Shown here piece after piece: positions 1-40,874 of a DNA stretch of 64,000 bases (its first letter is position 1; each line of letters starts with the position of its first letter). The notes under the pieces are model-generated. The model worked only from the letters and a program-made list of their open reading frames with translations. It did no database searches and had not been told where the DNA came from. The translations under genes and the position numbers were made by a program. This stretch comes from a virus: IMG/VR virus record IMGVR_UViG_3300045988_149331, positions 32,001 through 96,000 of that record; one strand, given 5' to 3'.

Positions 1-1062
1 CGACTTGCCCTTCTTCATCTTAGCACCGTTCTTGTCGCACTGCTCGAAGCCTTCGTCGTCCTCCTCGGTCTCCTCTTCGGATTCCTCCTTCTTGCCGGCC
101 TTGGCATTCTTCATGTTGGCGGCGTTATGACGCGGCTCGTCGTGGGTTTCGTCTTCCTCACCCATCTGGCCGTCGGCGTCATCACCCTTTTTCACCTCTT
201 CGTCACCTTCAGCCTTGGCGCCTTTCGGGGTAATTCCCAGAGCGTCATAAGCCTTCTCGATGTCCTCGGAAGTGATGGATTTTCGTTTGTTCATAACCGA
301 TATGTTTTTGATTAAAGTGTATACACCTTGTGCGTTCGGTATTGTAATATTTGGAATGTCCTTGAAGATACATTCCATGACGGAAGATTTCGAGAAGGTT
401 TGTTTCTTTGGCTGGCCGTCAACCGATTCAGGCATCAGCGCTGCGCCGGACTCAGTGGTCAGAGCCTTCTTCTCGGTTTTTCCACTGCGCTCTTCAGCGT
501 TATCGTCCTCTTCCTCCGCATCAACGTCGATACCGTCAGCGTCGATCTGACCCTTGATGATATTTACGAACGTATGGGGGTTTTTGGGCATATGGGTTAC
601 AGCGACGCCTGTGATAACGGCCTTGACGATCTTATTGTAGAGCGGCGAGTTCTTGTCGTTAGAACCACGCTTTACGACCTTACCCTCGATGGAATACCCC
701 AGACGGCGCGTCTTGCTGTCGTGTTCGAGGGTTTTGGCCAGTTCATATACCTCGCACGCCATAGGCGACGAAGCGTACAGGTCGCTCTCGATCCAAAGAC
801 CTTCAGGACGCAGTTCCACCTTTGAAGGTTCGCCAATGATAGCCGACGGGGAGTTCTTGGCCTGGTGGTGCCAGTTTACCATGCCTGACTTCTTCAGCGG
901 GTCAACGTCGAAGCCTGTCGGGTCCAGGTATTCGCCATCAGCATCCTTATCCATAGTGGAGGCAATACCGCCAATACGCATAACAGGTTCGCCTGCTTCG
1001 TCGGTGGCCTTCTCGATGCGTCCGATGGGGCACCAGAAATTGAATTTATCGTCCTTAAACAT
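1..1062 (-). CDS. Prohead protease (HK97/S78-like) fused to an acidic scaffold-like C-terminal region; 3' end runs off the window
   Basis: Absent from the ORF track because there is no stop inside the window. ATG is at 1062..1060 and the frame stays open for 354 codons down to base 1. N-terminus reads MFKDDKFNFWCPIGRIEKATDEAGEPVMRIGGIASTMDKDADGEYLDPTGFD. The WHHQ and LGYSIEGKV blocks resemble the His/Ser blocks of HK97-family prohead proteases. The distal half is D/E/K-rich like a scaffold. Confidence 0.6.
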   Translation of the reverse strand, partial: MFKDDKFNFWCPIGRIEKATDEAGEPVMRIGGIASTMDKDADGEYLDPTGFDVDPLKKSGMVNWHHQAKNSPSAIIGEPSKVELRPEGLWIESDLYASSPMACEVYELAKTLEHDSKTRRLGYSIEGKVVKRGSNDKNSPLYNKIVKAVITGVAVTHMPKNPHTFVNIIKGQIDADGIDVDAEEEDDNAEERSGKTEKKALTTESGAALMPESVDGQPKKQTFSKSSVMECIFKDIPNITIPNAQGVYTLIKNISVMNKRKSITSEDIEKAYDALGITPKGAKAEGDEEVKKGDDADGQMGEEDETHDEPRHNAANMKNAKAGKKEESEEETEEDDEGFEQCDKNGAKMKKGKS

Positions 1063-6378: not shown

Positions 6379-8136
6379 CTATTCGAACAACAGGGTTTCT
6401 GCCTTTTCGATCGACATTTCATCAACGTGGAGTGCGCCAAGATCAATCTCTTTGGCCTTCCACGTATCAGGGATCATGTCTTCAGCACCGAGTGTTTTGG
6501 CGCGACGCTTGATCCAGCGGCGAGCGCGTTCGGGGTTCTTAGCGTTGCCGGCGAGGCGGATGGCATTCTTCAGATCAGACTTGTTGCGGATCGGGAACGA
6601 GCCGTCGGGGAGGGCCTCCTTTTTCTTGGCGAGTTTATCGCGCTGCTCTTCGGTGAAATCGGCCTTTTCGAGCGATTCTGCGCCGTTAAGTAACTGCTCG
6701 GCCTTACTGATCGCGTCGGAGGTTTCGATCGGTTGAATGGCCTCATACGCGAGACTCTTCGTCAGCGCACGCACGGCACTCTTCTCCCACTCCTTTTGCT
6801 TCGCACCGATGAGGTTCGTCCACTCACCGCCCTGTTGGGCCATACGGTTAGAACGTTCCGTAGAGCGTTTTTCTGACAGAATGGTACCGAAAGTACGGGT
6901 GGTAAACTTGGCGGGATCGATCTTATCCTTATTCTTGACGATCAAATCGAACAGCTCTTGGCGTTCGGCCTTGTCCTCTTCAGGATCGTCAAGGTGAGGT
7001 GCCTGAGGTACGTCCATACTGGCGAATCGGTCTTTTAGTACCTCGATAGTTTCATCAACCGTCAGGTACACCTCCGACGAAAGCGTAGCGCGGCTGATGA
7101 TAGCTTTAGTATCTTCGTTCTTGGCGAGGTTCACCAAGTCCTTGTTGGTCATGATGATGATACGTCCCGTGAATACGAAATTCGACTTGACGTCTTCAGG
7201 GTCGCCGACGACGCGTTTACCACTGGCGGCAGTAGCTTTCTTCATGATAGAAGCCAGGTCGGCGCGGGTGATAACGGAATCGGTATCGTCGAACAGCAGA
7301 ATCTTGCCGTTGTGGGCCTTGAGTACGCCCAACAGCTGCTTCTTGGAGTTGATATCACCAAGTTCAACGTAGTCATAATCGCCGTCGCCAGGGGCGTCGG
7401 TCTCAGCGTCAAACGGACGCTTGTTGAGCAGTTCGGCGATCTTCTTGAAACCGTACGACTTACCAACGCCTGCGCCTCCGGCCGAGATCATGAAGCGTTG
7501 CTCCTTGTTGTCCAAGAACTCCAGATACTGGCGGTTCAGGTCGTACATTACCTCAACGGGCGGCTGGTAGTCGGGGTCCTTACGCTTCATCTTGTAGACG
7601 AAACGGTCGTAGGCGATACGGTCTTGGCGGTTCTGGAGTTTGTTGAATTTCTTCTGAACACGCGGGTCCTCGGGGTTGAGGAACCAGTCTTCCATAATCT
7701 CGCCATCGACGTTTTCACCTTCGCCGTCGTTAATATCAACCTTGTCTTGGGCGTTAGTAGGCGCAACGTCGTCCTGCTTGGAGGTCATCTTCAGCAGCGC
7801 GTCGAGTGTACCGGAGGTATCAACAGCCGAAGCGTCGAATTCGTCACGCGTCTTCAACTCCTCATAGGCAATCTTACGCAACTGCGCGTTGCCCTTGGGG
7901 TTGTTTACTACTTTGAGCAGATTGTCTGCGGAGGTACGCTTGGCCCACTCTTCAAGGCTGGCGGAACCGCCAGCAGAACCCGATTTACCTTCGTCGGCGG
8001 CAGGAGCCTTCTTGTTCTTGGCGTTTTTGTCGAGACGCCAGTTGAACTTTCCTGGCTTGTATTCGGTCCAAACCCACGGCTGTGTAGGGTGGTGGTCGCC
8101 GACGTTGTGTTTTGCTTTTTGGATAATGTCTGACAT
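6379..8136 (-). CDS. AAA+/P-loop ATPase with an N-terminal leader shared with the ART protein
   Basis: Walker A is ISAGGAGVGKSYGF, Walker B is KILLFDDTDS, and a sensor-1-like IIIMTNKD follows. The C-terminal module is DGSFPIRNKSDLKNAIRLAGNAKNPERARRWIKRRAKTLG. Confidence 0.65.
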   Translation of the reverse strand: MSDIIQKAKHNVGDHHPTQPWVWTEYKPGKFNWRLDKNAKNKKAPAADEGKSGSAGGSASLEEWAKRTSADNLLKVVNNPKGNAQLRKIAYEELKTRDEFDASAVDTSGTLDALLKMTSKQDDVAPTNAQDKVDINDGEGENVDGEIMEDWFLNPEDPRVQKKFNKLQNRQDRIAYDRFVYKMKRKDPDYQPPVEVMYDLNRQYLEFLDNKEQRFMISAGGAGVGKSYGFKKIAELLNKRPFDAETDAPGDGDYDYVELGDINSKKQLLGVLKAHNGKILLFDDTDSVITRADLASIMKKATAASGKRVVGDPEDVKSNFVFTGRIIIMTNKDLVNLAKNEDTKAIISRATLSSEVYLTVDETIEVLKDRFASMDVPQAPHLDDPEEDKAERQELFDLIVKNKDKIDPAKFTTRTFGTILSEKRSTERSNRMAQQGGEWTNLIGAKQKEWEKSAVRALTKSLAYEAIQPIETSDAISKAEQLLNGAESLEKADFTEEQRDKLAKKKEALPDGSFPIRNKSDLKNAIRLAGNAKNPERARRWIKRRAKTLGAEDMIPDTWKAKEIDLGALHVDEMSIEKAETLLFE

Positions 8137-10605: not shown

Positions 10606-11537
10606 TATTTTGTAACTTTAATGTTGAGTTTCACGTTCTTTAACTTTGGGTCTTTGAACTGACGCTTGACGGGCTTGGTGAAAGCGCGGGTTGCGGGGTC
10701 CCAATCGAAATTATCAGGCTTGTAATTAACCTGACACCGGCAGTAGGGGTGCGTCGGGTTAATCGTAGGGAGCCACTCTGCCGCCTTACGACCGATGTTG
10801 TTACCGTTAGCGATAAGGTCCGCCAAACGGAACAGTTTCGGTTTCGAGGTAGGGTCCTCGGGGTCTTCTAAGTACAACTCCCGGCACTTAGCGCACGCGC
10901 CTGGATAGACGTCGAAATACACTTTGGCGTCAGGCCCGTGTTGCTTGAAAATACTTTCAGCACGGCCCACGTTGTAGGCTTCGTGCAGGAGATAGTACGC
11001 AATACGCAGCCAATCGCGTCCCCAGTCTTGGGTAAGGTTTCCCAGTTCGCTGGCTACATAGCGCGCCCCCTTACGGAGTTGAACGGCTTGAATGGCCTTA
11101 TCTTTGATTTGCTGGCGTATAGCGGCCTGCTGACGGAAATTCGACTTGAGGATGGTGTTGCGTGTCCCGGTGACGATACGGTTGCCAAGCGATGTGATGT
11201 CGGTGTAGGCGCGGTTCTTGAGGTAATTGAGGGCGTTCTCTTCCTGTTCAGTGAGCGGTACAAAGTTTCCTGATTTCAAGAACTGAAGAAACTGTTTGTA
11301 GTTCATCTTCTTGGCGCGGGTATCGCCGATAGCCTCAGCCAAGATTCCAAACAGAAAGGCGTGTTCGATTATACCCTTAGAGTTCTTGTACTTATCGACG
11401 TTGACGCCTGACGCCACCAAGATGTCGATCTCCGACTGGGTCAGAAAATCCAATCCGACGTGCTTAGCAATAAACAGGTACTGCCAGCGCCGGAGAATAC
11501 CGACCATGTCGTCTATTTGGCGGTTATTGAAAATCAT
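10605..11537 (-). CDS. Head morphogenesis protein, Mu F / SPP1 gp7 family
   Basis: The C-terminal NPTHPYCRCQVNY matches the HPNCRC signature of MuF-like proteins. It lies downstream of the portal and is separated from it by nine intervening genes. Confidence 0.65.
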   Translation of the reverse strand: MIFNNRQIDDMVGILRRWQYLFIAKHVGLDFLTQSEIDILVASGVNVDKYKNSKGIIEHAFLFGILAEAIGDTRAKKMNYKQFLQFLKSGNFVPLTEQEENALNYLKNRAYTDITSLGNRIVTGTRNTILKSNFRQQAAIRQQIKDKAIQAVQLRKGARYVASELGNLTQDWGRDWLRIAYYLLHEAYNVGRAESIFKQHGPDAKVYFDVYPGACAKCRELYLEDPEDPTSKPKLFRLADLIANGNNIGRKAAEWLPTINPTHPYCRCQVNYKPDNFDWDPATRAFTKPVKRQFKDPKLKNVKLNIKVTK

Positions 11538-12175
11538 CAGTCTTCAGTGCTCCAAGAGCCGTCGTTTTTTAATTCCCTGGCTTTTGGTCCATCAGATACA
11601 GTCTTCTTGATACCATATTCCCCAGGGCGTTCGTTTTCTTCACTCCGTACCTTGTTCGCAGTTTCCGCCGCTTTTTGATACGAACCACTCTTTACCTTCC
11701 GTAACAAACGAATGTCTTCTATCTTTATGGAATTTGGATATTTGCCCCCTATTTTGTTAACAAGTCCGTCTATTTTCACCTCAAAGCTATCGCCATCGCG
11801 GCTAACTATCTTCCCAACTGAATATGAATGATAACCGGAGCCGTTATTAACATGAACAATTACGACATCGCCATGGCTTAAATCGGAAGGTTCAACCTCG
11901 TGTCCTGAATTAAAATCCTCAACGGTGTACTGGTACAGTTTCTTGTTAGGTAATTTAATTGGCTTGAACTTAGGTTCTTTGTAAGGCATCCCAACGCGCC
12001 CTAATTTCCGATTTTCAGACGTGTCGGCGTATCGCCCGGTCTTCGAACGGGCTTTCTCCAACGCATCGCCGTCGGTTAGGTTTCCTTCAAAAGCACCTAT
12101 GGCTTTACACAAGTGGTCGTGGCGATATTGATTGGCTTCATGAAATGCCCTCGTCACTTCATCTACTACTCCCAT
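11537..12175 (-). CDS. Hypothetical virion-module protein with an NRKLGRVG leader motif and an SH3/Tudor-like segment
   Basis: EKARSKTGRYADTSENRKLGRVGMPY is shared with the ART protein. The segment GDVVIVHVNNGSGYHSYSVGKIVSRDGDSFEVKIDG looks SH3/Tudor-like. Confidence 0.6.
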   Translation of the reverse strand: MGVVDEVTRAFHEANQYRHDHLCKAIGAFEGNLTDGDALEKARSKTGRYADTSENRKLGRVGMPYKEPKFKPIKLPNKKLYQYTVEDFNSGHEVEPSDLSHGDVVIVHVNNGSGYHSYSVGKIVSRDGDSFEVKIDGLVNKIGGKYPNSIKIEDIRLLRKVKSGSYQKAAETANKVRSEENERPGEYGIKKTVSDGPKARELKNDGSWSTED

Positions 12176-12678
12176 AATCTTACTCGTGATTCATGGCCGT
12201 GTTTAACGGCAATTCTACCGTTGTTAAGGTCGATTTCAACGCTCTTATCGGTAAGTGCAACAACTTTTCCAGGCTTATAACAAAACCCATTTTCAGCGTT
12301 CCCCAACTTGACGATAACAGCTCTGTACTTGGTGAGTTCGGAAAAGTCTTTGATCTTGATGGCTTCTTCGTCAAACATCTTTTTCCAAAACCACTCGATA
12401 TCAGGCCAGAGGCGAACCTCTTCGTTAACCCCTAACGACGCTGTAATCGGCGCACCATTGGGGAACAAATTCACCTCACACTTACCATCACTGACGCGTG
12501 ATAGCGTACCGATGTTATACCTCACCTTCCCCTTATCATCCTTCACGCGAACGATGACTCGTACAGGGTAAGGCGGTGTTACCTTCAACGCGCTGTTAGC
12601 AGCGATTGTTGTGCCGATATGCCAAATCTTCTCAGCCTTCGCTGCTGACACGGCCCAAATTATTTTTCTTTGGTCCAT
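12166..12678 (-). CDS. Hypothetical protein with two SH3/Tudor-like repeats
   Basis: VRVIVRVKDDKGKVRYNIGTLSRVSDGKCEVNL and AVIVKLGNAENGFCYKPGKVVALTDKSVEIDL. Confidence 0.55.
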   Translation of the reverse strand: MDQRKIIWAVSAAKAEKIWHIGTTIAANSALKVTPPYPVRVIVRVKDDKGKVRYNIGTLSRVSDGKCEVNLFPNGAPITASLGVNEEVRLWPDIEWFWKKMFDEEAIKIKDFSELTKYRAVIVKLGNAENGFCYKPGKVVALTDKSVEIDLNNGRIAVKHGHESRVRLWE

Positions 12679-12850
12679 CTTCCTTTAATTCTTTTACCGC
12701 CGCAGCCGTAGCGTCGGCGATGTATTTTAGTACATCGCCTAACGCAGCGGCGTTGTTGGCGTTCCATTCGCGGATAAACCGATCTTCGTACTGAGTAACG
12801 GTGGGGAATGGCGACGGCAAAAAGTGGGTATGTTTGGCGTTGTAAGGCAT
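12632..12850 (-). CDS. Small hypothetical protein, start coupled (TAATG) to the ART gene stop
   Basis: 72-aa ORF. Its ATG shares base 12850 with the TAA stop of the ART gene. Confidence 0.45.
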   Translation of the reverse strand: MPYNAKHTHFLPSPFPTVTQYEDRFIREWNANNAAALGDVLKYIADATAAAVKELKEDGPKKNNLGRVSSEG

Positions 12851-14604
12851 TACTCTTGTTTGCTATCTTCCGGCAACCATTCCATTAAGACACGATTTCC
12901 TTCAATCTTATGGACCTTATAATTTTGGTCTCGGCCAATTAAAAATTCCCCCTCCTCTCCTCCGTAAACCCCTACTACTGGAGCAACCGGGCAACCCGCG
13001 GGAGCGATAATATCAAAATACATAGTCCCCTCGTCGTTGCTAATTTCAGGATAACATGTAGTGCTCATGAACGACTTATCGCTGAACACCTCCCCCTCCT
13101 TGAGATTTTTAACGAAATTATCTGCATCGTTTTCAAACGTAAGTTTCCTGTATAAAACGATATTTTGTCCCACTTTATTTTGAGAAATAAACGTATCAAT
13201 TCCGTTTATGAATTTATCCATTTTATCAGACGATACATCGACTTTGTTGCCGTAAAGGTATTTTCTCATTACAGCAAAGTCAAGATCATCATCTTCGTCA
13301 AAATCGTCATCATGGTCTGCGGAATATAAAACAATAGCTTTTACTGCATCCGAATCGCTTTCGTCCATGAAATCCTCATAAGCGTCAACAATCTTATCAA
13401 AGAATTCAGTTGCATCGTCGCTGTTTAATCGTATGAATTTTTCGCCGTTTATGTCCAACCCACTTTTCCGTAAAGCCCATTTGTACGCTCTATCGGCCTT
13501 TTTGAGAACTTTTTCATTCGCCTTGTCAGAGGGTAATCGCTCAATGTTTTTCGCAGTACTGTCGCCTGATAATGAAATATTAAAACGTTCATTATCTGCT
13601 TCAAATTTCTTTTGTTCTTCTGCTTTTTCCCTTTTAACATCCTCGCTTTTTACCCAAAAAGCGATAGCGTCGTCTTTTGTGTCTTCAGGCACGATATTAT
13701 TTCTTTTCAAGACATCAATCGCCTTTTTAGATAATTCTTCGGGGGTTAATTTATACTTTGAATACTGTTCGTCGGTCTTTCGTAATTTACTCAAAAAGAT
13801 GCCAGCTATCGTCTTTGGTGTATCGCTACCTCGTACTTGATCCAGCAAATCTTTTTCGAATTTCTCATCAACGGCATCTTCGTCTTTATTGTCGTCATCC
13901 TTTTCACTACCCTCCCTGGCGTCAGGATCGCCGAACTTGGACGCGGCTCCCTCGACGTCAGCGATCTCCTTCACCGTCGTGGTCTCGAAATTGTCAACAT
14001 CGGCGTAGGGGTATTTGTCCACGCGGTAGCCTTCGCTGGTCTTGGTGACTACCAGATCGAAGCCGTCTTCGTCGCCGCCGACCTGCTTGATGAACGCGTG
14101 AGAAGCGTCTTCGACTCCAGCGTACTGCTCCAGGTCCTGGTCGTCCATCTGACGGAAGCCCATGGACTCAAACGAGGCCGTCGCCTTGGCGTCACCGTCA
14201 GCCAGGCCGTTACGCAACGAGGCGTCGCCCTTCTTGTTCTTGGCGCGAACGTTCACGCCGCGGCGTTCGAGTTCTGCGGTGGCCACCTTGCGCATTTCAG
14301 CGTCAGCCGACGGATCGTTAGCCACTTTCACCAACGCCTCCTCCGAAGCCGAGCGGGCATGATTCTGGAGGCTGACGTTGCCTCCGGGAACGCCACCTTC
14401 ACCCCCCTCAGCCGCGGGGTCTTTCTCCTTGGCTGCGTGACCGTACTCCTGACCCACACGTTGCAAGCGGCGGTTTTGAGCGTTGTCGGTGTATACACCG
14501 TGACGCGCTTTTTCGATTTCTACCTCTTCAGTTTCGGGGATGTTGACGAACCCCTTGAGGATTTGCTGTCGTTTTGCCTCACCGTAGTTGATAATCTCTT
14601 TCAT
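12850..14604 (-). CDS. ADP-ribosyltransferase (R-S-E class) with a long N-terminal leader/linker
   Basis: C-terminal domain reads VLYRK (R), SFMSTTCY (STS-like) and GGEEGEFLIGR (ExE). The N-terminus has GVYTDNAQNRRLQRVGQEYG and a HEAT-like segment shared with the AAA+ protein. Confidence 0.7.
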   Translation of the reverse strand: MKEIINYGEAKRQQILKGFVNIPETEEVEIEKARHGVYTDNAQNRRLQRVGQEYGHAAKEKDPAAEGGEGGVPGGNVSLQNHARSASEEALVKVANDPSADAEMRKVATAELERRGVNVRAKNKKGDASLRNGLADGDAKATASFESMGFRQMDDQDLEQYAGVEDASHAFIKQVGGDEDGFDLVVTKTSEGYRVDKYPYADVDNFETTTVKEIADVEGAASKFGDPDAREGSEKDDDNKDEDAVDEKFEKDLLDQVRGSDTPKTIAGIFLSKLRKTDEQYSKYKLTPEELSKKAIDVLKRNNIVPEDTKDDAIAFWVKSEDVKREKAEEQKKFEADNERFNISLSGDSTAKNIERLPSDKANEKVLKKADRAYKWALRKSGLDINGEKFIRLNSDDATEFFDKIVDAYEDFMDESDSDAVKAIVLYSADHDDDFDEDDDLDFAVMRKYLYGNKVDVSSDKMDKFINGIDTFISQNKVGQNIVLYRKLTFENDADNFVKNLKEGEVFSDKSFMSTTCYPEISNDEGTMYFDIIAPAGCPVAPVVGVYGGEEGEFLIGRDQNYKVHKIEGNRVLMEWLPEDSKQE

Positions 14605-14632
14605 CGTATTGTTGTTTTATATGTTTCTTTTC

Positions 14633-14672
14633 CTACTACAAAAGGTAATGAAAATTCTCCAAACCGCCAATA
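14633..14672 (-). promoter_or_regulatory. Promoter-like cassette upstream of the ART gene
   Basis: Minus strand reads TTGGCGGTTTGGAGAATTTTCATTACCTTTTGTAGTAGGAAAAGAAAC. The TACCTTTTG box lies 42 nt from the ATG. Confidence 0.5.
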
Positions 14673-14679
14673 GTTTTTG

Positions 14680-15237
14680 TTAAAATTTTACACCAAAATC
14701 CACCGTATATCCCCAGTTATCATTAACCCTCATGGCTGAAGCACCTACCATGAACCGCTGGCGGAAATCGGCTCCGGCGGAGAACTTTTGTGTACCAAAG
14801 TCCAACGATGTGCCTATTTGGGCATAGCCTTGGATGAATGGTATGCGGGTTTGCACCGTGGTACGTTCTATTTCACGCACTCGTATCAGAGGATTGATAA
14901 TTGACGTAGCTTCAGTGATGGCGTTGCGGTTCACAGTGGCGTTCACCTTGAACGTTCCAATACTGTCGTTTGAAAAGTCCAGCGTGTAGTGCTTTGTAGC
15001 AAGATAATCAGCCAGCAACGCCGCGGTGTCGATTTCCCCTGGAAGGTAGATGGTGGTATCGCGTACGACGATATACGGCACCGGAACCTTCACTGTATCG
15101 CGGTATTCGACCGTGTCGTGCTTTGTATGCCACCTTTCAACGACTTTCGGGGGTTCGGGGATATAACTACCCCGCCCAAGAAAGAACGCGAAAATTAGGG
15201 CCGCTACAACGATAATTATGGATGCCGCAGTTTTCAT
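14680..15237 (-). CDS. Signal-anchored beta-rich protein ending in Phe (possible outer-membrane/spanin-like lysis accessory)
   Basis: The N-terminal hydrophobic helix is AASIIIVVAALIFAFFL. The C-terminus YTVDFGVKF is typical of outer-membrane beta proteins. Confidence 0.5.
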   Translation of the reverse strand: MKTAASIIIVVAALIFAFFLGRGSYIPEPPKVVERWHTKHDTVEYRDTVKVPVPYIVVRDTTIYLPGEIDTAALLADYLATKHYTLDFSNDSIGTFKVNATVNRNAITEATSIINPLIRVREIERTTVQTRIPFIQGYAQIGTSLDFGTQKFSAGADFRQRFMVGASAMRVNDNWGYTVDFGVKF

Positions 15238-15734
15238 GGACGTTTGCCGTTTTTGATCATATCCTCGTAGGCCACAATTGACGCTTCAAGATCACTGATG
15301 CGACGCTTGTATTCCTCGGCGGCGCGATTGGCTTCGCACTCATGTGTACGGAACTCCTCCATCAGGCGGTTATACTTATCACGATCGGCCTGGCGTTGAG
15401 CCTCGTATTCGTCGCGAATCTTGTTGAGTTCGTTACGAAAGTTGGTCATCATTTCGTTAGATAACCGCCGTTCGTTCTGTACCTCTTGGTAGAGGTTGTC
15501 GTAGCGTTCCTTCCACCACGACTCCTTCTTGTCCAACTCAGCCGCCAATACGTCATATCGCCCTTTCCAAAACTCTTCACCCTTGAGGTCGGCATCAGCC
15601 TGACTGGCGCGAACTTCCTGCTCGTATTTCTTACGATCGAGCATACGTGCTACAACGGCATAACCGATACTACCCACTCCAAATAGAAGTGAGATCACGG
15701 GGAAAATTGTAGTCATGAAAAGTCCGTCAGCCAT
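15234..15734 (-). CDS. N-terminal TM plus coiled-coil protein (i-spanin-like or holin-associated)
   Basis: TM segment is TTIFPVISLLFGVGSIGYAVV, followed by about 130 aa of charged heptad-like sequence. There is a 4-nt overlap with the downstream gene. Confidence 0.5.
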   Translation of the reverse strand: MADGLFMTTIFPVISLLFGVGSIGYAVVARMLDRKKYEQEVRASQADADLKGEEFWKGRYDVLAAELDKKESWWKERYDNLYQEVQNERRLSNEMMTNFRNELNKIRDEYEAQRQADRDKYNRLMEEFRTHECEANRAAEEYKRRISDLEASIVAYEDMIKNGKRP

Positions 15735-17942: not shown

Positions 17943-18200
17943 TTAGCGTGAATATAGGTAGGCGGTACGGTCGTCCCAAACGAAATTGAAACTCATATCC
18001 CCTTGAGGATATTCCGTGATGGTAATGCCGTTGGCGGTTGTTTCACGTTCGATACGCCAGCCCGGCTCTCCCTGGCCTGTGCCGATAGGGGCATATCCGC
18101 GATACACGGTCCCCTCAGTGGAAGCGTCGATGATAGGCTTCGGCATGGCCTCCGAAAGCAACTGCACGATGGGTGCAGTATTCTTCTCGTTACTCGTCAT
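17943..18200 (-). CDS. Small hypothetical protein downstream of the portal
   Basis: 85-aa ORF overlapping the portal stop by 11 nt. Confidence 0.5.
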   Translation of the reverse strand: MTSNEKNTAPIVQLLSEAMPKPIIDASTEGTVYRGYAPIGTGQGEPGWRIERETTANGITITEYPQGDMSFNFVWDDRTAYLYSR

Positions 18201-19956
18201 GATCTATTGCTTTTTGTAAGTATTCGTCAAATGCGGCCACGAGCGGGTTTGCCTCACGGGCCTTCATAGTCTCTTCGTCGTCGCCTTGGGCGTAAAGGTC
18301 AAACGGGTTGCCGCCCTGGGCGTCGGCGTCTTCTTCGCCTTCACCACCAGCCACAGGCTCATCAGCCGGGCCGCCTGCTGCCTCCATACCCATACCAGCG
18401 GCCTCTTCGAATGGGTTTCCACCGCCCATTCCCATACCGCCCATCGCCTGCTGCTGTTGCTGCTTGGCGCTGAGGGCTTGTTGAATAACGGAGTTTTCGA
18501 TAGTATCACCACCCTTTTCTTCGCCGATGGCGGGGAGGTCCCACTTTTCGCGAATTTCATCGACGGTCTGGAAGGCTTGAAGGCGTTTGATGTCCATATC
18601 CAACTCCTCGGAAATAGTCATTCCGTTGAGGCCCATGAACACGAACTCAAAGTCAGGGTTAATCTGGTCAACGATGAACTTGTTAATCTTACGCTGGATG
18701 AACTTCAACAGCGGATACAGACCCTTGTCTTTCGACTGCTCCATACGTTGTTTTTGGCCATCGCCAAACGTCAGGCCGCTGTTGTTAGAACGTGATATGT
18801 CCCAACCGATTTCCGTCGGGTCGATACAGTACACAGCGCAAGCGATCTTAATCAGGTATTCCATCCAAGACGTGTACTCCATATCACGGTTGTTCTTCTG
18901 GAGGTCTACCCAGTCAATATCACCTTCGACGACAGGCGTCTTCCACGACTGCATAACGCCTGAAATCATCGCCTGCCACTGCTGTTTGAACTGCTGAAGC
19001 GAAGCCTCGTTGACGTTGCCCTTGATACGCAACAGACCCTTCGGGGCTGACCCCTGTGAGAAGAAACGGCGGTTGTACTCATCACCCCAAAGCATCGACG
19101 TGACGACGTTGATCAACTCTTCCAACTCGGAGTTCCCGTAGCCGTTAGCGTAGATAGACGTTGACGGGTTGCGGATTCCAAAGCACAACTCCCATGGATA
19201 GAACTGTGCCACCTTGGCTGTTTGGTACACCTGGACGTAGGCCGGGTAGTAACCGTCGATTTTTTGCCCCCAGTTTTGGCGGTCATCCATCATTACGCCG
19301 CGGAAATACGGGTTGTCGTATTCACCATCAAAGTACGAATCTGCCAACCGGAACGTAGCAGCGTCTACAGCCTGGAAACGTACCAATTTACCGCGGCGAT
19401 TGCGGATACATTCAAACGTCAGCTGGTCGAACGTCAACGAGTCGTCAACGATCTTACGTATGAACTCGTCAAATTCGTCACCATCCCACGCAGCAGTATC
19501 GCCACAGTTTAGGATGAAGTCCGTGATGGACGAAGCGATCTTGCAGTCTTGGGAGTCCATTTTCTGCTCCATACCGTGACGCGGCTTGCGTCGAATAACG
19601 AAGCCCGTCGAATAGCGGTCGGCCTGCGGTTCAGCAAAGTCGGCCACCTGATTCTTACGGGTCTTGATGATGGAGTTGATAATGGGGGTGCGGCTCATCC
19701 GGCGCAGCGTCTCGTACGAGAGTGAGAACGGCTTATCCTTGTAACCCAAAAACGAGTTGAACTCCAACGGGTCGATGAGATATGCCTTGGGGGCCACGTT
19801 GGCGGGCTTGCTTTGCTGGTTAAATATTTCGGCCGCTTTGAGTATGTCGGACGGGTTATCACCACGCAGCGCCTTCTCCACCAACAGCGATTTGCGGATG
19901 GTCAAGGCTTGCATGGCGCGTTCTACCGATTCCAATCTTTCTTTTACACCGGACAT
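18190..19956 (-). CDS. Portal protein
   Basis: 588 aa, in the head-morphogenesis block upstream of the MuF gene, with a Gly/Met-rich then acidic C-terminal tail. The family call rests on size, context and general resemblance. Confidence 0.6.
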   Translation of the reverse strand: MSGVKERLESVERAMQALTIRKSLLVEKALRGDNPSDILKAAEIFNQQSKPANVAPKAYLIDPLEFNSFLGYKDKPFSLSYETLRRMSRTPIINSIIKTRKNQVADFAEPQADRYSTGFVIRRKPRHGMEQKMDSQDCKIASSITDFILNCGDTAAWDGDEFDEFIRKIVDDSLTFDQLTFECIRNRRGKLVRFQAVDAATFRLADSYFDGEYDNPYFRGVMMDDRQNWGQKIDGYYPAYVQVYQTAKVAQFYPWELCFGIRNPSTSIYANGYGNSELEELINVVTSMLWGDEYNRRFFSQGSAPKGLLRIKGNVNEASLQQFKQQWQAMISGVMQSWKTPVVEGDIDWVDLQKNNRDMEYTSWMEYLIKIACAVYCIDPTEIGWDISRSNNSGLTFGDGQKQRMEQSKDKGLYPLLKFIQRKINKFIVDQINPDFEFVFMGLNGMTISEELDMDIKRLQAFQTVDEIREKWDLPAIGEEKGGDTIENSVIQQALSAKQQQQQAMGGMGMGGGNPFEEAAGMGMEAAGGPADEPVAGGEGEEDADAQGGNPFDLYAQGDDEETMKAREANPLVAAFDEYLQKAIDHDE

Positions 19957-24403: not shown

Positions 24404-24435
24404 AACCAATTTTGTTTTACGATTCTTTTCAAGAG

Positions 24436-24467
24436 CGAAGGTACGTTGAAATTCCAAAATCTCCAAG
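24436..24467 (-). promoter_or_regulatory. Promoter-like cassette
   Basis: Minus strand reads CTTGGAGATTTTGGAATTTCAACGTACCTTCGCTCTTGAAAAG. The TACCTTCG box lies 40 nt from the ATG at 24403. Confidence 0.5.
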
Positions 24468-24482
24468 AGAATTTCAAGAAAT

Positions 24483-29989: not shown

Positions 29990-30668
29990 TTTGTTTTACG
30001 GTTTCTCGTTTTATAGTTGGAAATAATTCTCCCGTAAACCGAACCATCGTGCGCTGGAGATGGGCGAAAATGTCTTCCGGTTTGAGGTGGAGTTCTTGTA
30101 ACAACACCCGTTCCATCGTAATCAGTCCCTCGGTGTCAGGCAGACGATACACAACGTCGAAATTGTATTTTCCGTCGTGAGGATCGCGATAAATGGTGAC
30201 GATCTTCACCTCGATGATTTCGATAGGCCCTTCTGCGCCCGTGATAATGTAACGCGAATCGCCAATTTGAGGGAGAATGTTGCCCTTAACGCGAATTGCC
30301 TTTCCGTTCTGGTTGACGTCGCGCGGGGGGGTTACATGTTTTTGCCTTGAAGTAGCACGTTTCGCGCGGCTGTAGTCTTGATTCTCCAACCAAACCTGCG
30401 CCGCCAATTTATCGAGATCAGGGATAGTGGCGGAGGTGGGGACGTAACGATATCTGATCGTTGACTTCACGCCTTCGCGTTGGATAATACCCACGCTGGA
30501 AAGTACTTTGAACAGCGCCGGCGATACCTTGGGGCTGATGCCGTTCTTAGTGAGGATAGCACCAAACGACGCGCCAGGTTCCATCACACTAACCCATTTG
30601 TTGAGCGAACGTTCTAAGATGTCGGCAATGGCCGCCTTGACGCCTTTTTCGAAAAGTTCTTGTTTCAT
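29979..30668 (-). CDS. Hypothetical protein (possible wHTH N-terminus)
   Basis: 229-aa ORF overlapping the next gene by 11 nt. Confidence 0.55.
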   Translation of the reverse strand: MKQELFEKGVKAAIADILERSLNKWVSVMEPGASFGAILTKNGISPKVSPALFKVLSSVGIIQREGVKSTIRYRYVPTSATIPDLDKLAAQVWLENQDYSRAKRATSRQKHVTPPRDVNQNGKAIRVKGNILPQIGDSRYIITGAEGPIEIIEVKIVTIYRDPHDGKYNFDVVYRLPDTEGLITMERVLLQELHLKPEDIFAHLQRTMVRFTGELFPTIKRETVKQNGR

Positions 30669-30698
30669 CGTTGTACAGTTTTGTTGTTAGACACACTG

Positions 30699-30712
30699 TA
30701 TAACGTTGGCGG
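30699..30712 (+). promoter_or_regulatory. Copy of the recurrent TATAACGTTGGCGG motif
   Basis: Intergenic, 31-44 nt upstream of the ATG at 30668. Coding-strand reading is CCGCCAACGTTATA. Confidence 0.4.
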
Positions 30713-30717
30713 CTTTG

Positions 30718-31383
30718 TTATTTGGCGCATTGGAACTCGAAAAAGTCGTTACCGCGGCGGCGTTTCTTACGCTCGGTGGCGGTAATTTCGCCTTCAGCTC
30801 TCAACCGCTGGACACAGTATCGAAAATATTCGGCTGTGGCTTCAACGTCGTTCATCGCGCCGTGAGCGTCTGTGAGGCGGATGCCGGCGCGTTCACACGT
30901 AGCACCAAGTGTCATTTTCTCGTCACCCGTCAAGCCGTACATCATTTTGGAAAAGTACATCGTGTCCAGCGTCTGTTCTTGGATGTAGGTGAATAGGTCG
31001 TATTTCCGTCCATAGGATGAATATTCAAACGCCGCCGATAACATCGCCACGTCGAACATCACGTTGTGACCCACACCTATCAGGCGGCGCTGCTCTTTGC
31101 CCTTGGCGTCGGAGAAATTTTGAGTACAGAACCGCCCCAGTGCTTCGATAAACGCATCCAACTCCATACCTCGGTTCACCTCAGCCATATTGACCATGGT
31201 CTTAGAAATGGATTCTTTCGTTATTTGGAGACCATTGTACGGCTTTACGTAGGTTTCCCAGCGGTCTACCTCTTTCAGGGTGTTAAAGTCTAAAACAACG
31301 GCTGCAAACGACGTTATGGGGTTTTGAGTGGGATCGAGACCTCCAGTTTCCGTGTCGAAACACAAGAAATTACTTTTCTTCAT
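30718..31383 (-). CDS. DEDDh 3'-5' exonuclease (DnaQ/epsilon-like)
   Basis: Exo I is FLCFDTETGGLDP, Exo II is VGHNVMFDVAML and Exo III is HGAMNDVEATA. Confidence 0.7.
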   Translation of the reverse strand: MKKSNFLCFDTETGGLDPTQNPITSFAAVVLDFNTLKEVDRWETYVKPYNGLQITKESISKTMVNMAEVNRGMELDAFIEALGRFCTQNFSDAKGKEQRRLIGVGHNVMFDVAMLSAAFEYSSYGRKYDLFTYIQEQTLDTMYFSKMMYGLTGDEKMTLGATCERAGIRLTDAHGAMNDVEATAEYFRYCVQRLRAEGEITATERKKRRRGNDFFEFQCAK

Positions 31384-31410
31384 ATCATTTCGGTTTTACG
31401 TAGTAACGCT

Positions 31411-31449
31411 GTAAGAAAACCACCCCTCTGCATCACTGCGGTGGGGTGG
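31411..31449 (-). terminator. Rho-independent terminator
   Basis: Stem CCACCCC/GGGGTGG (31443-31449 and 31420-31426), followed on the minus strand by TTTTCTTAC. Confidence 0.55.
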
Positions 31450-31497
31450 CGGCGTTTAATCTATTTAACTTATGAATGCCCCTCTTTTTGAGGTTGT

Positions 31498-37703: not shown

Positions 37704-37735
37704 AGTTTTGTAGTGTGTTTTAGTTTCATTTTCAA

Positions 37736-37770
37736 CTACAAAGGTACGGCGAATTTTCCAAATCTCCAAG
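37736..37770 (-). promoter_or_regulatory. Promoter-like cassette
   Basis: Minus strand reads CTTGGAGATTTGGAAAATTCGCCGTACCTTTGTAGTTGAAAATGAAAC. The TACCTTTG box lies 43 nt from the ATG. Confidence 0.55.
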
Positions 37771-37884
37771 AGAATTTCAAGAAATTTTTCTCTTTTTACA
37801 AAGATTTTTCCAAGACCCTCGTTAAATCAACATCAGAGCGAGTATATCATCATCGCCAACAGCAGCGCCACAACACAAAACCCC

Positions 37885-37926
37885 AGTAAATAAAGAAGGT
37901 TGACGACTACCCGAGCCATCAACCTT
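37885..37926 (-). terminator. Hairpin terminator after the 145-aa gene
   Basis: Stem AAGGTTGA/TCAACCTT (37896-37903 and 37919-37926), followed on the minus strand by CTTTATTTAC. Confidence 0.45.
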
Positions 37927-37948
37927 ACAATATACGCCAACCGTTTCA

Positions 37949-40666: not shown

Positions 40667-40696
40667 TTTACAGAGTTTAGTTTCATTTTCCAAGAG

Positions 40697-40750
40697 CGAA
40701 GGTAGTGTAAATCTCCAAGACTTCAAAGAGAATCGCGAAAAATCCTCCAA
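40697..40750 (-). promoter_or_regulatory. Promoter-like cassette
   Basis: Minus strand reads CTTGGAGGATTT...CTTGGAGATTTACACTACCTTCGCTCTTGGAAAATGAAAC. The TACCTTCG box lies 38 nt from the ATG. Confidence 0.5.
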
Positions 40751-40780
40751 GAAAAGCGAATTATTTTCGTAAACCGCCAA

Positions 40781-40821
40781 CAGAAACCCCAGCTAACGGG
40801 GTGGATAGGTGTTAGCTGGGG
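40781..40821 (-). terminator. Hairpin terminator after the 179-aa gene
   Basis: 11-bp stem CCCCAGCTAAC/GTTAGCTGGGG, followed on the minus strand by TTTCTGTTGG. Confidence 0.45.
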
Positions 40822-40874
40822 AGTTGTAAAACGAATAGTTATACCGCCTCACGGCGTCACGTAGTATAACGTTG

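Follow-up and report, generated by a model that had tools for sequence, protein, structure and literature searches.

A predicted arginine-specific ADP-ribosyltransferase is one of two alternative cargoes on a conserved carrier protein in a group of SPO1/Herelle-like phages

Background

To our knowledge, phage ADP-ribosyltransferases (ARTs) encoded with head genes are predicted to be injected enzymes of host takeover or counter-defence, and few of them have been characterised outside T4. An ART as such is ordinary for a large phage. The gene described here lies in a 64,000-nucleotide stretch of DNA (the window), which comprises bases 32001-96000 of the complete 100,685-bp IMG/VR virus record IMGVR_UViG_3300045988_149331, a genome with direct terminal repeats. 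Its 584-aa product is shown by sequence comparison to be a chimera, in which a conserved N-terminal carrier (the N-module) is joined to a horizontally exchangeable C-terminal ART cassette of ~354 aa. By analogy with T4 Alt, the protein may be a head-packaged, injected, arginine-specific enzyme that modifies the host, a proposal for which the chances appear about even.

Packaging has been proposed for ARTs of the Alt/VIP2 type that are encoded in head modules or fused to MuF, and ARTs are enriched in myoviruses (PMC9503650). In T4, N-terminal capsid-targeting sequences (CTS) direct the loading of Alt and the internal proteins, which are later ejected (PMC9026906). Like T4 Alt, the window protein is an R-S-ExE ART of the broad Alt/VIP2/C3 family, found in a virulent myovirus-type phage with no immunity gene (PMC9503650), but no sequence relationship to Alt is detectable beyond the family level, and its cargo is allelic (ART or acidic repeats) among close relatives. 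As in the T4 capsid-targeting system, N-terminal sequences are common to several head-region proteins and a head maturation protease is present (PMC9026906). The leader here, however, is a 230-aa module, whereas T4 has a propeptide of ~10 residues, and packaging, cleavage and ejection are putative in this phage.

The MuF polymorphic toxins (PMC5576092), and Bxa of Bacteroides stercoris with its partners Bsi and BAH (PMC11699363), have a similar design: a conserved head-associated N-module, a variable C-terminal toxin or enzyme (ARTs included), a small ORF directly downstream and, as here, a Bacteroidota-associated phage lineage. The differences are nevertheless several. The N-module is not MuF, and the MuF-like candidate is encoded separately, three ORFs downstream; small ORF and cargo do not co-vary, no ADP-ribosylhydrolase was found, and only two cargo types were seen. 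MuF toxins are also associated with a temperate lifestyle, but no tyrosine integrase was found in the complete genome (serine integrases were not searched for). The whole protein appears to work like a MuF polymorphic toxin or a CTS-tagged internal protein of T4, yet by these features it falls outside the MuF family. It also resembles the polyvalent and other head-associated effector fusions (Iyer et al. 2017, PMC5512222; 2022, PMC9503650) in having an enzyme domain on a head-associated N-terminal region beside portal and capsid genes. It differs from the polyvalent proteins in having a single effector domain, not a chain of many, and in its undescribed carrier module.

The ADP-ribosyltransferase domain

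12850-14604, minus strand: carrier-ART gene, 584-aa ORF
12853-13392, minus strand: ADP-ribosyltransferase domain, aa ~405-584 (PF03496 match, conserved alignment columns, profile matches)
13147-13149, minus strand: catalytic codon R486, checked by translation
13057-13065, minus strand: catalytic codons S514-T-T, checked by translation
12946-12954, minus strand: catalytic codons E551-G-E553, checked by translation

The 584-aa protein matches PF03496 (ADPrib_exo_Tox) over aa 450-569 with E=2.2e-9 and 37.4 bits (cut-off 23.4), and the same match was returned at 39.7 bits, above the gathering threshold, when the whole genome was searched with Pfam. The predicted catalytic triad is at Y485-R486-K487, S514-T515-T516 and E551-G552-E553. 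In an alignment of 28 distant ART domains (27 remote database domains and aa 401-584 of this protein), R486, G504, S514 and E553 are invariant, and E551 and G537 nearly so. A second EGE, at aa 503, is non-catalytic. With the family match above its cut-off and the residues on conserved columns, the complete triad (YRK, STT and EGE) that a first-pass annotation had read from the DNA is confirmed.

A profile built from this alignment matched solved structures of VIP2 (5e-39), CdtA, iota Ia, C2-I, Certhrax, C3 and related ARTs, down to ~1e-13. Such a profile of distant domains was needed because a single-sequence phmmer search of the 584-aa protein against the PDB gave nothing relevant. When the C-terminal 353 aa were compared with 1.84 billion representative proteins, only remote ART domains were found outside the protein's own cluster (24-35% identity, E from 8e-22 to 1e-3), and many of the nearest of these are embedded in proteins of 1,200-3,300 aa. 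Only the same cluster was recovered by a word-based search with aa 420-584, and tblastn of the 584-aa protein against 50,697 phage records gave zero matches.

The catalytic Arg, the STS-type motif and the ExE lie on the columns that are invariant in the C3/VIP2/iota ARTs, and the helical segment upstream also aligns. Unlike those enzymes, the window ART is no closer than the identities above to any other ART domain, has an acidic insertion (DHDDDFDEDDDLD) in its N-terminal helical part, and is fused to a phage carrier, not to a secretion or binding component. By sequence it is a genuine R-S-ExE ART of the C3/VIP2/Alt type and a divergent member of PF03496; with its catalytic positions intact, it is apparently active. 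The ExE form of the ART motif, as opposed to QxE, marks arginine as the acceptor. Arginine-specific ADP-ribosylation of one or more host proteins is predicted from this form.

A conserved carrier with exchangeable cargo

13915-14604, minus strand: GC-rich N-terminal carrier module, aa 1-230 (identity across relatives, GC content, homology break)
12856-13913, minus strand: AT-rich exchangeable cassette (~1.06 kb), aa 231-583, comprising a helical linker and the ART (GC content, homology break)

The first 230 aa of the protein are 78-97% identical in hundreds of proteins encoded on ~97-100-kb contigs, and the C-termini of these proteins differ. A homology search with the full protein gave 753 matches, and the ART-type C-terminal part is common to 12 of the 120 best clusters. 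The remaining clusters among these 120 comprise proteins of 430-691 aa with two to four copies of an acidic ~95-aa repeat, in some cases followed by another C-terminal domain. The ART is likewise the minority allele among the IMG/VR relatives, where it is present in one of 24. The distant relative L053, with an N-module 59% identical to that of the window, has the repeat-type cargo. Pfam matches of the non-ART alleles to Sigma70_r1_1, EF-hand and BOP1NT were rejected, as they are weak, mostly below the cut-offs, and at best low-complexity acidic matches.

The boundaries of the cassette are sharp in the DNA. Homology to the non-ART relatives ends at 13914-13919 (codon 230) and returns 5-15 nt ahead of the stop codon, at 12855-12865. 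The GC content is 0.60-0.63 in the N-module vs 0.32-0.40 in the cassette (genome ~0.50), and it shifts at the same point as the homology breaks. Six relatives (L002, L003, L005, L006, L009 and L020) have no DNA homology to the cassette despite matching flanks; in L003 the upstream DNA is 99%, the N-module 95.5% and the downstream DNA 98% identical to the window, but the cassette is wholly missing. In the ART-bearing relatives L001 and L025 it is 86% identical. The helical linker (aa 231 to ~404) has no homologue beyond its own cluster among the representative proteins, and neither the linker nor the N-module has any match in Pfam, PHROGs or NCBIfam.

On these comparisons, ART and acidic repeats are two long-standing alternative C-terminal cargoes on one carrier. 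The low GC content suggests that the ART cassette came originally from a foreign source. Cargo exchange proceeds by homologous recombination in the conserved flanks, with the N-module on one side and the last codons and the 72-aa gene (see below) on the other.

Some ART-type genes are split. In L025 (4001-5756), L026 and L027, contigs that come from at least three independent samples, an extra A in an A-run near codon 330 (GCAGAAAAAACAG vs GCAGAAGAACAAAAG) shifts the frame. The gene is thereby divided into a carrier fragment of 334 aa and a separate ORF of 228 aa, and the latter retains its match to PF03496.

The 72-aa gene

12632-12850, minus strand: 72-aa backbone gene, joined by TAATG to the carrier stop; its last 47 nt overlap the next gene
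12166-12678, minus strand: 170-aa gene of the same operon-like run, conserved in most relatives

The stop codon of the carrier-ART gene overlaps the start of a 72-aa ORF, exactly as the first-pass annotation had described; the junction reads GAGTAATGCC, where the TAA overlaps the ATG. A small gene of 63-72 aa with the TAATG junction is present in all 24 related IMG/VR loci. The gene upstream of it encodes an ART in only one of them; in the other 23 the C-terminus is of a non-ART type, either repeat-type or FLEIYGGNTEE-type. By codon position, the variable columns of the small gene among 24 sequences number 10/4/34. Synonymous-only changes are found in 27 of its codons and amino-acid changes in nine, and both shifted frames show the opposite pattern. 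The ORF is thus, on its substitution pattern, a real gene under purifying selection. Its family comprises only 14 clusters among 5.8 billion proteins, all within this phage group, and the protein has zero family matches in Pfam, PHROGs and NCBIfam. The AlphaFold2 (AF2) model has a mean pLDDT of 72 and predicts a single long helix (aa 18-57) between a Pro-rich N-terminus and a disordered tail.

A programmed frameshift fusing the 72-aa and 170-aa ORFs was considered and rejected: the 170-aa frame is +1, a conserved slippery site is lacking, and the small gene is retained in several relatives in which another gene, or none, takes the place of the downstream one. The 170-aa gene is swapped for two unrelated small genes (82-84 and 92 aa) in L009, L010, L013 and L015 and is absent in L020; in all five the upstream small gene is shortened to 63 aa.

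The small protein had been put forward as an immunity protein or chaperone that keeps the ART silent, the two forming a toxin/immunity or enzyme/inhibitor pair such as Bxa of the Bacteroides prophage with Bsi and BAH. The overlap on which this idea was built is real, and in temperate Bacteroidales phages the small ORFs that follow MuF-fused toxins do encode cognate immunity proteins (PMC11699363). The coupling, however, is not distinctive, since 33 of the 80 adjacent minus-strand ORF pairs in this phage (~41%) overlap anyway. The small gene is nearly invariant and stands downstream of a non-ART gene in nearly all of the loci; no ART-linked residues were found in it among the aligned relatives. 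The TAATG itself belongs to the backbone flank and not to the ART cassette, because homology resumes before the stop codon. ART and small gene are not inherited or exchanged as a unit, and the small gene remains in the backbone through changes of cargo. Loss of the 72-aa ORF from relatives had been named as a result that would speak against the pair. The ORF is conserved, but independently of the ART, and this counts against a cognate pair. No tyrosine integrase was found in the phage, which is therefore probably virulent, so that self-immunity would matter less. The comparative data already largely refute the toxin/immunity model, which now seems extremely improbable, and by sequence the 72-aa gene is a fixed backbone gene, not an ART-specific antidote. 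Alternatively, the 72-aa protein may be a dedicated chaperone or adaptor of the carrier module, which for example would prevent the N-module from folding or attach it to the portal or scaffold, with translational coupling setting the right stoichiometry. This would be compatible with packaging as well as with expression after infection. The 1:1 co-occurrence and invariant TAATG with the carrier gene, whatever the cargo, agree with such a role, as do the restriction of the family to this phage group, the strong purifying selection, and the predicted structure of one long helix after a Pro-rich N-terminus, a typical design for small binding or assembly factors. On the other hand, carrier and small gene do not overlap in L053, overlaps are common genome-wide, and the co-occurrence may simply reflect conserved gene order; a carrier chaperone is considered unlikely.

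Leader motifs shared with other proteins

14443-14514, minus strand: leader motif A (EKARHGVYTDNAQNRRLQRVGQEY, aa 31-54), common to the 212-aa protein
14257-14439, minus strand: leader module B (aa 56-116, ...SLQNHARSASEEALVKVANDPSADAEMRKVATAELERRG), common to the N-terminus of the 585-aa P-loop protein
11537-12175, minus strand: 212-aa protein, leader motif A at aa 40-65, C-terminus variable among relatives
6379-8136, minus strand: 585-aa P-loop protein (GGAGVGKS, aa 220), leader module B at the N-terminus; phrog_1250, a family of unknown function

Two parts of the N-module recur elsewhere in the genome. Leader A, with a consensus around Y.D...NRxLxRVG..Y, aligns aa 21-54 of the ART protein to aa 32-65 of the 212-aa protein (BLASTP pairwise E=2e-5), and a regular expression for it matched these two proteins only across the six frames. 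Leader B aligns aa 30-115 to aa 5-97 of the 585-aa protein, at 34% identity over 99 aa (E=3.7e-11), and the 585-aa homologue in Chryseobacterium phage MA9V-3 has it as well. Among all 874 ORFs of the genome, the N-module is shared only by the 585-aa (E=7e-10) and 212-aa (E=0.008) proteins.

It is possible, if doubtful, that the motifs EKAR..Y.D...NRxLxRVG..Y and SL..xA...S...L.KV.N.P...A..RK.A..EL..R, together with the 230-aa N-module, form an undescribed address system for capsid targeting or ejection. Such a system would load unrelated enzymes into the head, namely the ART, the P-loop NTPase and the 212-aa protein, recombination in the flanks would swap the injected cargo, and the 72-aa protein would be a loader or adaptor.

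Among the relatives, the N-terminus of the 212-aa protein is conserved, and its C-terminal tail exists in at least four different versions (protein lengths 174-218 aa). DNA homology in its gene breaks at ~11545-11982, and the 3' half of the ORF (11545-12050) forms a second, small site of cargo exchange that lies 1 kb downstream of the ART cassette. A weak beta-rich segment is common to the 170-aa and 212-aa proteins (E=0.022). The 585-aa protein has a probable Walker B (ILLFDDTD) and a C-terminal basic segment (ALPDGSFPIRNKSDLKNAIRLAG...), and a homologue of it is encoded by MA9V-3.

The promoter-like cassette

14605-14679, minus strand: promoter-like cassette (cTTGG...TTTGGAGA...N...TACCTTTTG), at least 26 nt upstream of the ATG
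14605-14679, 24404-24482, 37704-37948 and 40667-40874, coding strand: the four regions with the cassette (TTGG...TACCTTTG), defined by the shared motif

The carrier-ART gene is preceded by one of four promoter-like cassettes, in agreement with the first-pass annotation; the motif is conserved and also lies upstream of the non-ART alleles. In these four coding-strand intergenic regions, TTGGAGAtTT...TACCTT(T/C)G stands just before an ATG, and no Shine-Dalgarno sequence can be read upstream of the ATGs. The pattern TTGG-N17-22-TACCTT has three exact matches, all inside the four regions, where 0.57 are expected and one of 100 shuffles reaches three. Its geometry (cTTGG/TTTG, ~19-20 nt, TAccTTTG) resembles the -33/-7 promoter type of Bacteroidota, and the cassette probably functions as a promoter. 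The strict Bacteroides consensus TTTG-N17-23-TAnnTTTG gave two matches, elsewhere and at chance level, and scans for sigma-70 promoters and terminators were also at chance level. The cassette upstream of the carrier gene is kept in 22 close relatives, ART-bearing or not, and is missing at this position in the more distant L053.

The other three copies read TTGGAGATTT...TACCTT(T/C)G, and the two longer regions have extra upstream repeats of TTCTTGAAATTCTC or TTGGAGGATTTTT.

Proposed function and alternatives

18190-19956, minus strand: portal protein, upstream boundary of the block (phrog_12 at 1e-46; PF04860)
1-1062, minus strand: head maturation protease, N-terminal 354 of its 513 aa, downstream boundary of the block (whole gene at genome 31521-33062; phrog_1028 at 2e-31 for the full protein)
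Genome 29996-31483, just outside the window: major head protein, 495 aa (phrog_752 at 4e-85)

The carrier-ART gene lies between the portal gene and the protease and capsid genes. In order of transcription, the portal gene is followed by four ORFs (two of them for membrane-anchored proteins), the promoter-like cassette, the ART carrier, the 72-, 170- and 212-aa ORFs and the 310-aa ORF. Then come a trio of radical-SAM (rSAM), LmbE-like and glycosyltransferase genes, the genes for the 585-aa P-loop and 793-aa proteins, ORFs of 174 and 589 aa, the head maturation protease and the major head protein. No Macro or ADP-ribosylglycohydrolase domain was found in the complete genome.

In the proposed mechanism, the N-module would load its cargo into the procapsid. 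The ART would be injected with the DNA and, in the manner of T4 Alt, would ADP-ribosylate arginines of host proteins as infection begins; the 72-aa protein would belong to the backbone and be associated with the carrier or with head assembly. Loading into the procapsid is the most likely role of the N-module because of the position between portal and protease/capsid genes, the lack of an immunity or reversal enzyme, and the leaders held in common with enzyme-like proteins.

Several observations weigh against a packaged and injected enzyme. No recognised packaging domain was found, and PF04233 (MuF) was detected neither in the protein nor genome-wide at E<=1. The gene lies directly behind a host-type promoter-like cassette that also precedes an operon of replication/recombination type (24404-24482), and the ART operon includes DNA-modification enzymes (the rSAM, LmbE-like and glycosyltransferase trio); both features fit expression early or mid-infection without packaging. 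The statistical support for leader A is weak when all genome ORFs are searched (phmmer E=0.008). The AF2 model of the 584-aa protein, made from a shallow alignment, represents the ART fold poorly (mean pLDDT 45, below 50 over aa 338-584), and Foldseek returned no match for it at E<=0.001. In one sub-lineage a 1-nt insertion separates carrier from ART, so the fusion is not indispensable.

The main alternative is that the host-type promoter drives synthesis of the ART after infection and that the enzyme acts unpackaged in the cytoplasm, like T4 ModA and ModB, with the N-module as a regulatory or target-docking domain. A conserved Bacteroidota-like cassette directly upstream would be expected in that case, and the same type of cassette precedes the operon encoding a DUF7168/DUF2786 protein and a 5'-3' exonuclease. 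The ART gene is also co-oriented, with no predicted terminator between, with DNA-modification genes that act during replication, and the absence of a recognised packaging domain points the same way. However, the gene is located between the portal and the protease/capsid genes, and a conserved N-terminus with a swappable C-terminus, along with leaders common to two other proteins, is what delivery tags would be expected to show. In L053, moreover, the gene order is the same although the promoter cassette is missing. An ART made after infection and left unpackaged is a rather unlikely explanation. The ART cassette could instead be a dispensable, possibly decaying passenger that was gained by recombination and has no important role. 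Its minority status in both sets of relatives and the +1 frameshift that splits the gene in contigs from at least three samples would fit this, but no catalytic position is lost, the cassette has been maintained through ~14% DNA divergence, a level equal to that of the backbone, and the 228-aa ART ORF of the split variant stays open and retains its match to PF03496. A mere passenger appears very unlikely.

Neighbouring genes and the phage group

10605-11537, minus strand: 310-aa protein with an HPYCRC motif, candidate minor head protein, MuF-like by motif only

The portal protein is ~40% identical to those of SPO1-like phages (Herelleviridae) and Chryseobacterium phage MA9V-3. The phage is of gut type and belongs to a group that is ~100 kb in genome size, SPO1/Herelle-like and probably virulent, with Bacteroidota-type promoter signals. 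Searches of the genome for peptidases S78 and S77 were negative, and the protease was identified through PHROGs instead.

The 170-, 212- and 310-aa proteins have no match in Pfam, PHROGs or NCBIfam. Homologues of the 310-aa protein are found in SP-10-like Bacillus phages (adjoining the portals, and in one case annotated as a minor capsid protein), in MA9V-3 and in Bacteroides DAC phages. The MuF-like label is tentative, since the protein is not matched by PF04233. In L007, L010 (9311-11311), L018, L019 and L020 the homologue is 666-676 aa long and has a 356-aa insertion exactly at HPY|CRC. The insertion has Cys as its first residue and ...VVHN at its end, next to a Cys, and a segment within it resembles the Vsr/DUF559 endonucleases. 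From these sequence features it looks like a classical intein with a homing endonuclease, of which the window has the intein-free allele.

Directly upstream of the promoter-like cassette, at 14680-15734, are two overlapping genes with no family matches. Both encoded proteins have an N-terminal membrane helix, which is accompanied by a long charged coiled-coil-like region in the 166-aa protein and by a beta-rich C-terminus ending in Phe in the 185-aa protein. These may be membrane or lysis-type proteins inside the head-gene block.

Implications

A small overlapping ORF downstream of a toxin-like gene is no evidence of an immunity partner unless it co-varies with the toxin. The locus provides a divergent, predicted arginine-type ART with its catalytic positions intact from an abundant, uncultured lineage of ~100-kb phages, and the parts worth following are the undescribed carrier and leader and the natural polymorphism of ART and repeats. 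The N-module is a candidate modular leader and possibly a protein-delivery tag. If the address system is true, it would belong to the SPO1/Herelle-like phages of Bacteroidota, and co-infecting phages would swap injected cargo (ART vs acidic repeats) as a polymorphism at the level of the population. Near-isogenic phages that differ only in ART vs acidic-repeat cargo could reveal what benefit the ART brings, such as in host range or in escape from defence.

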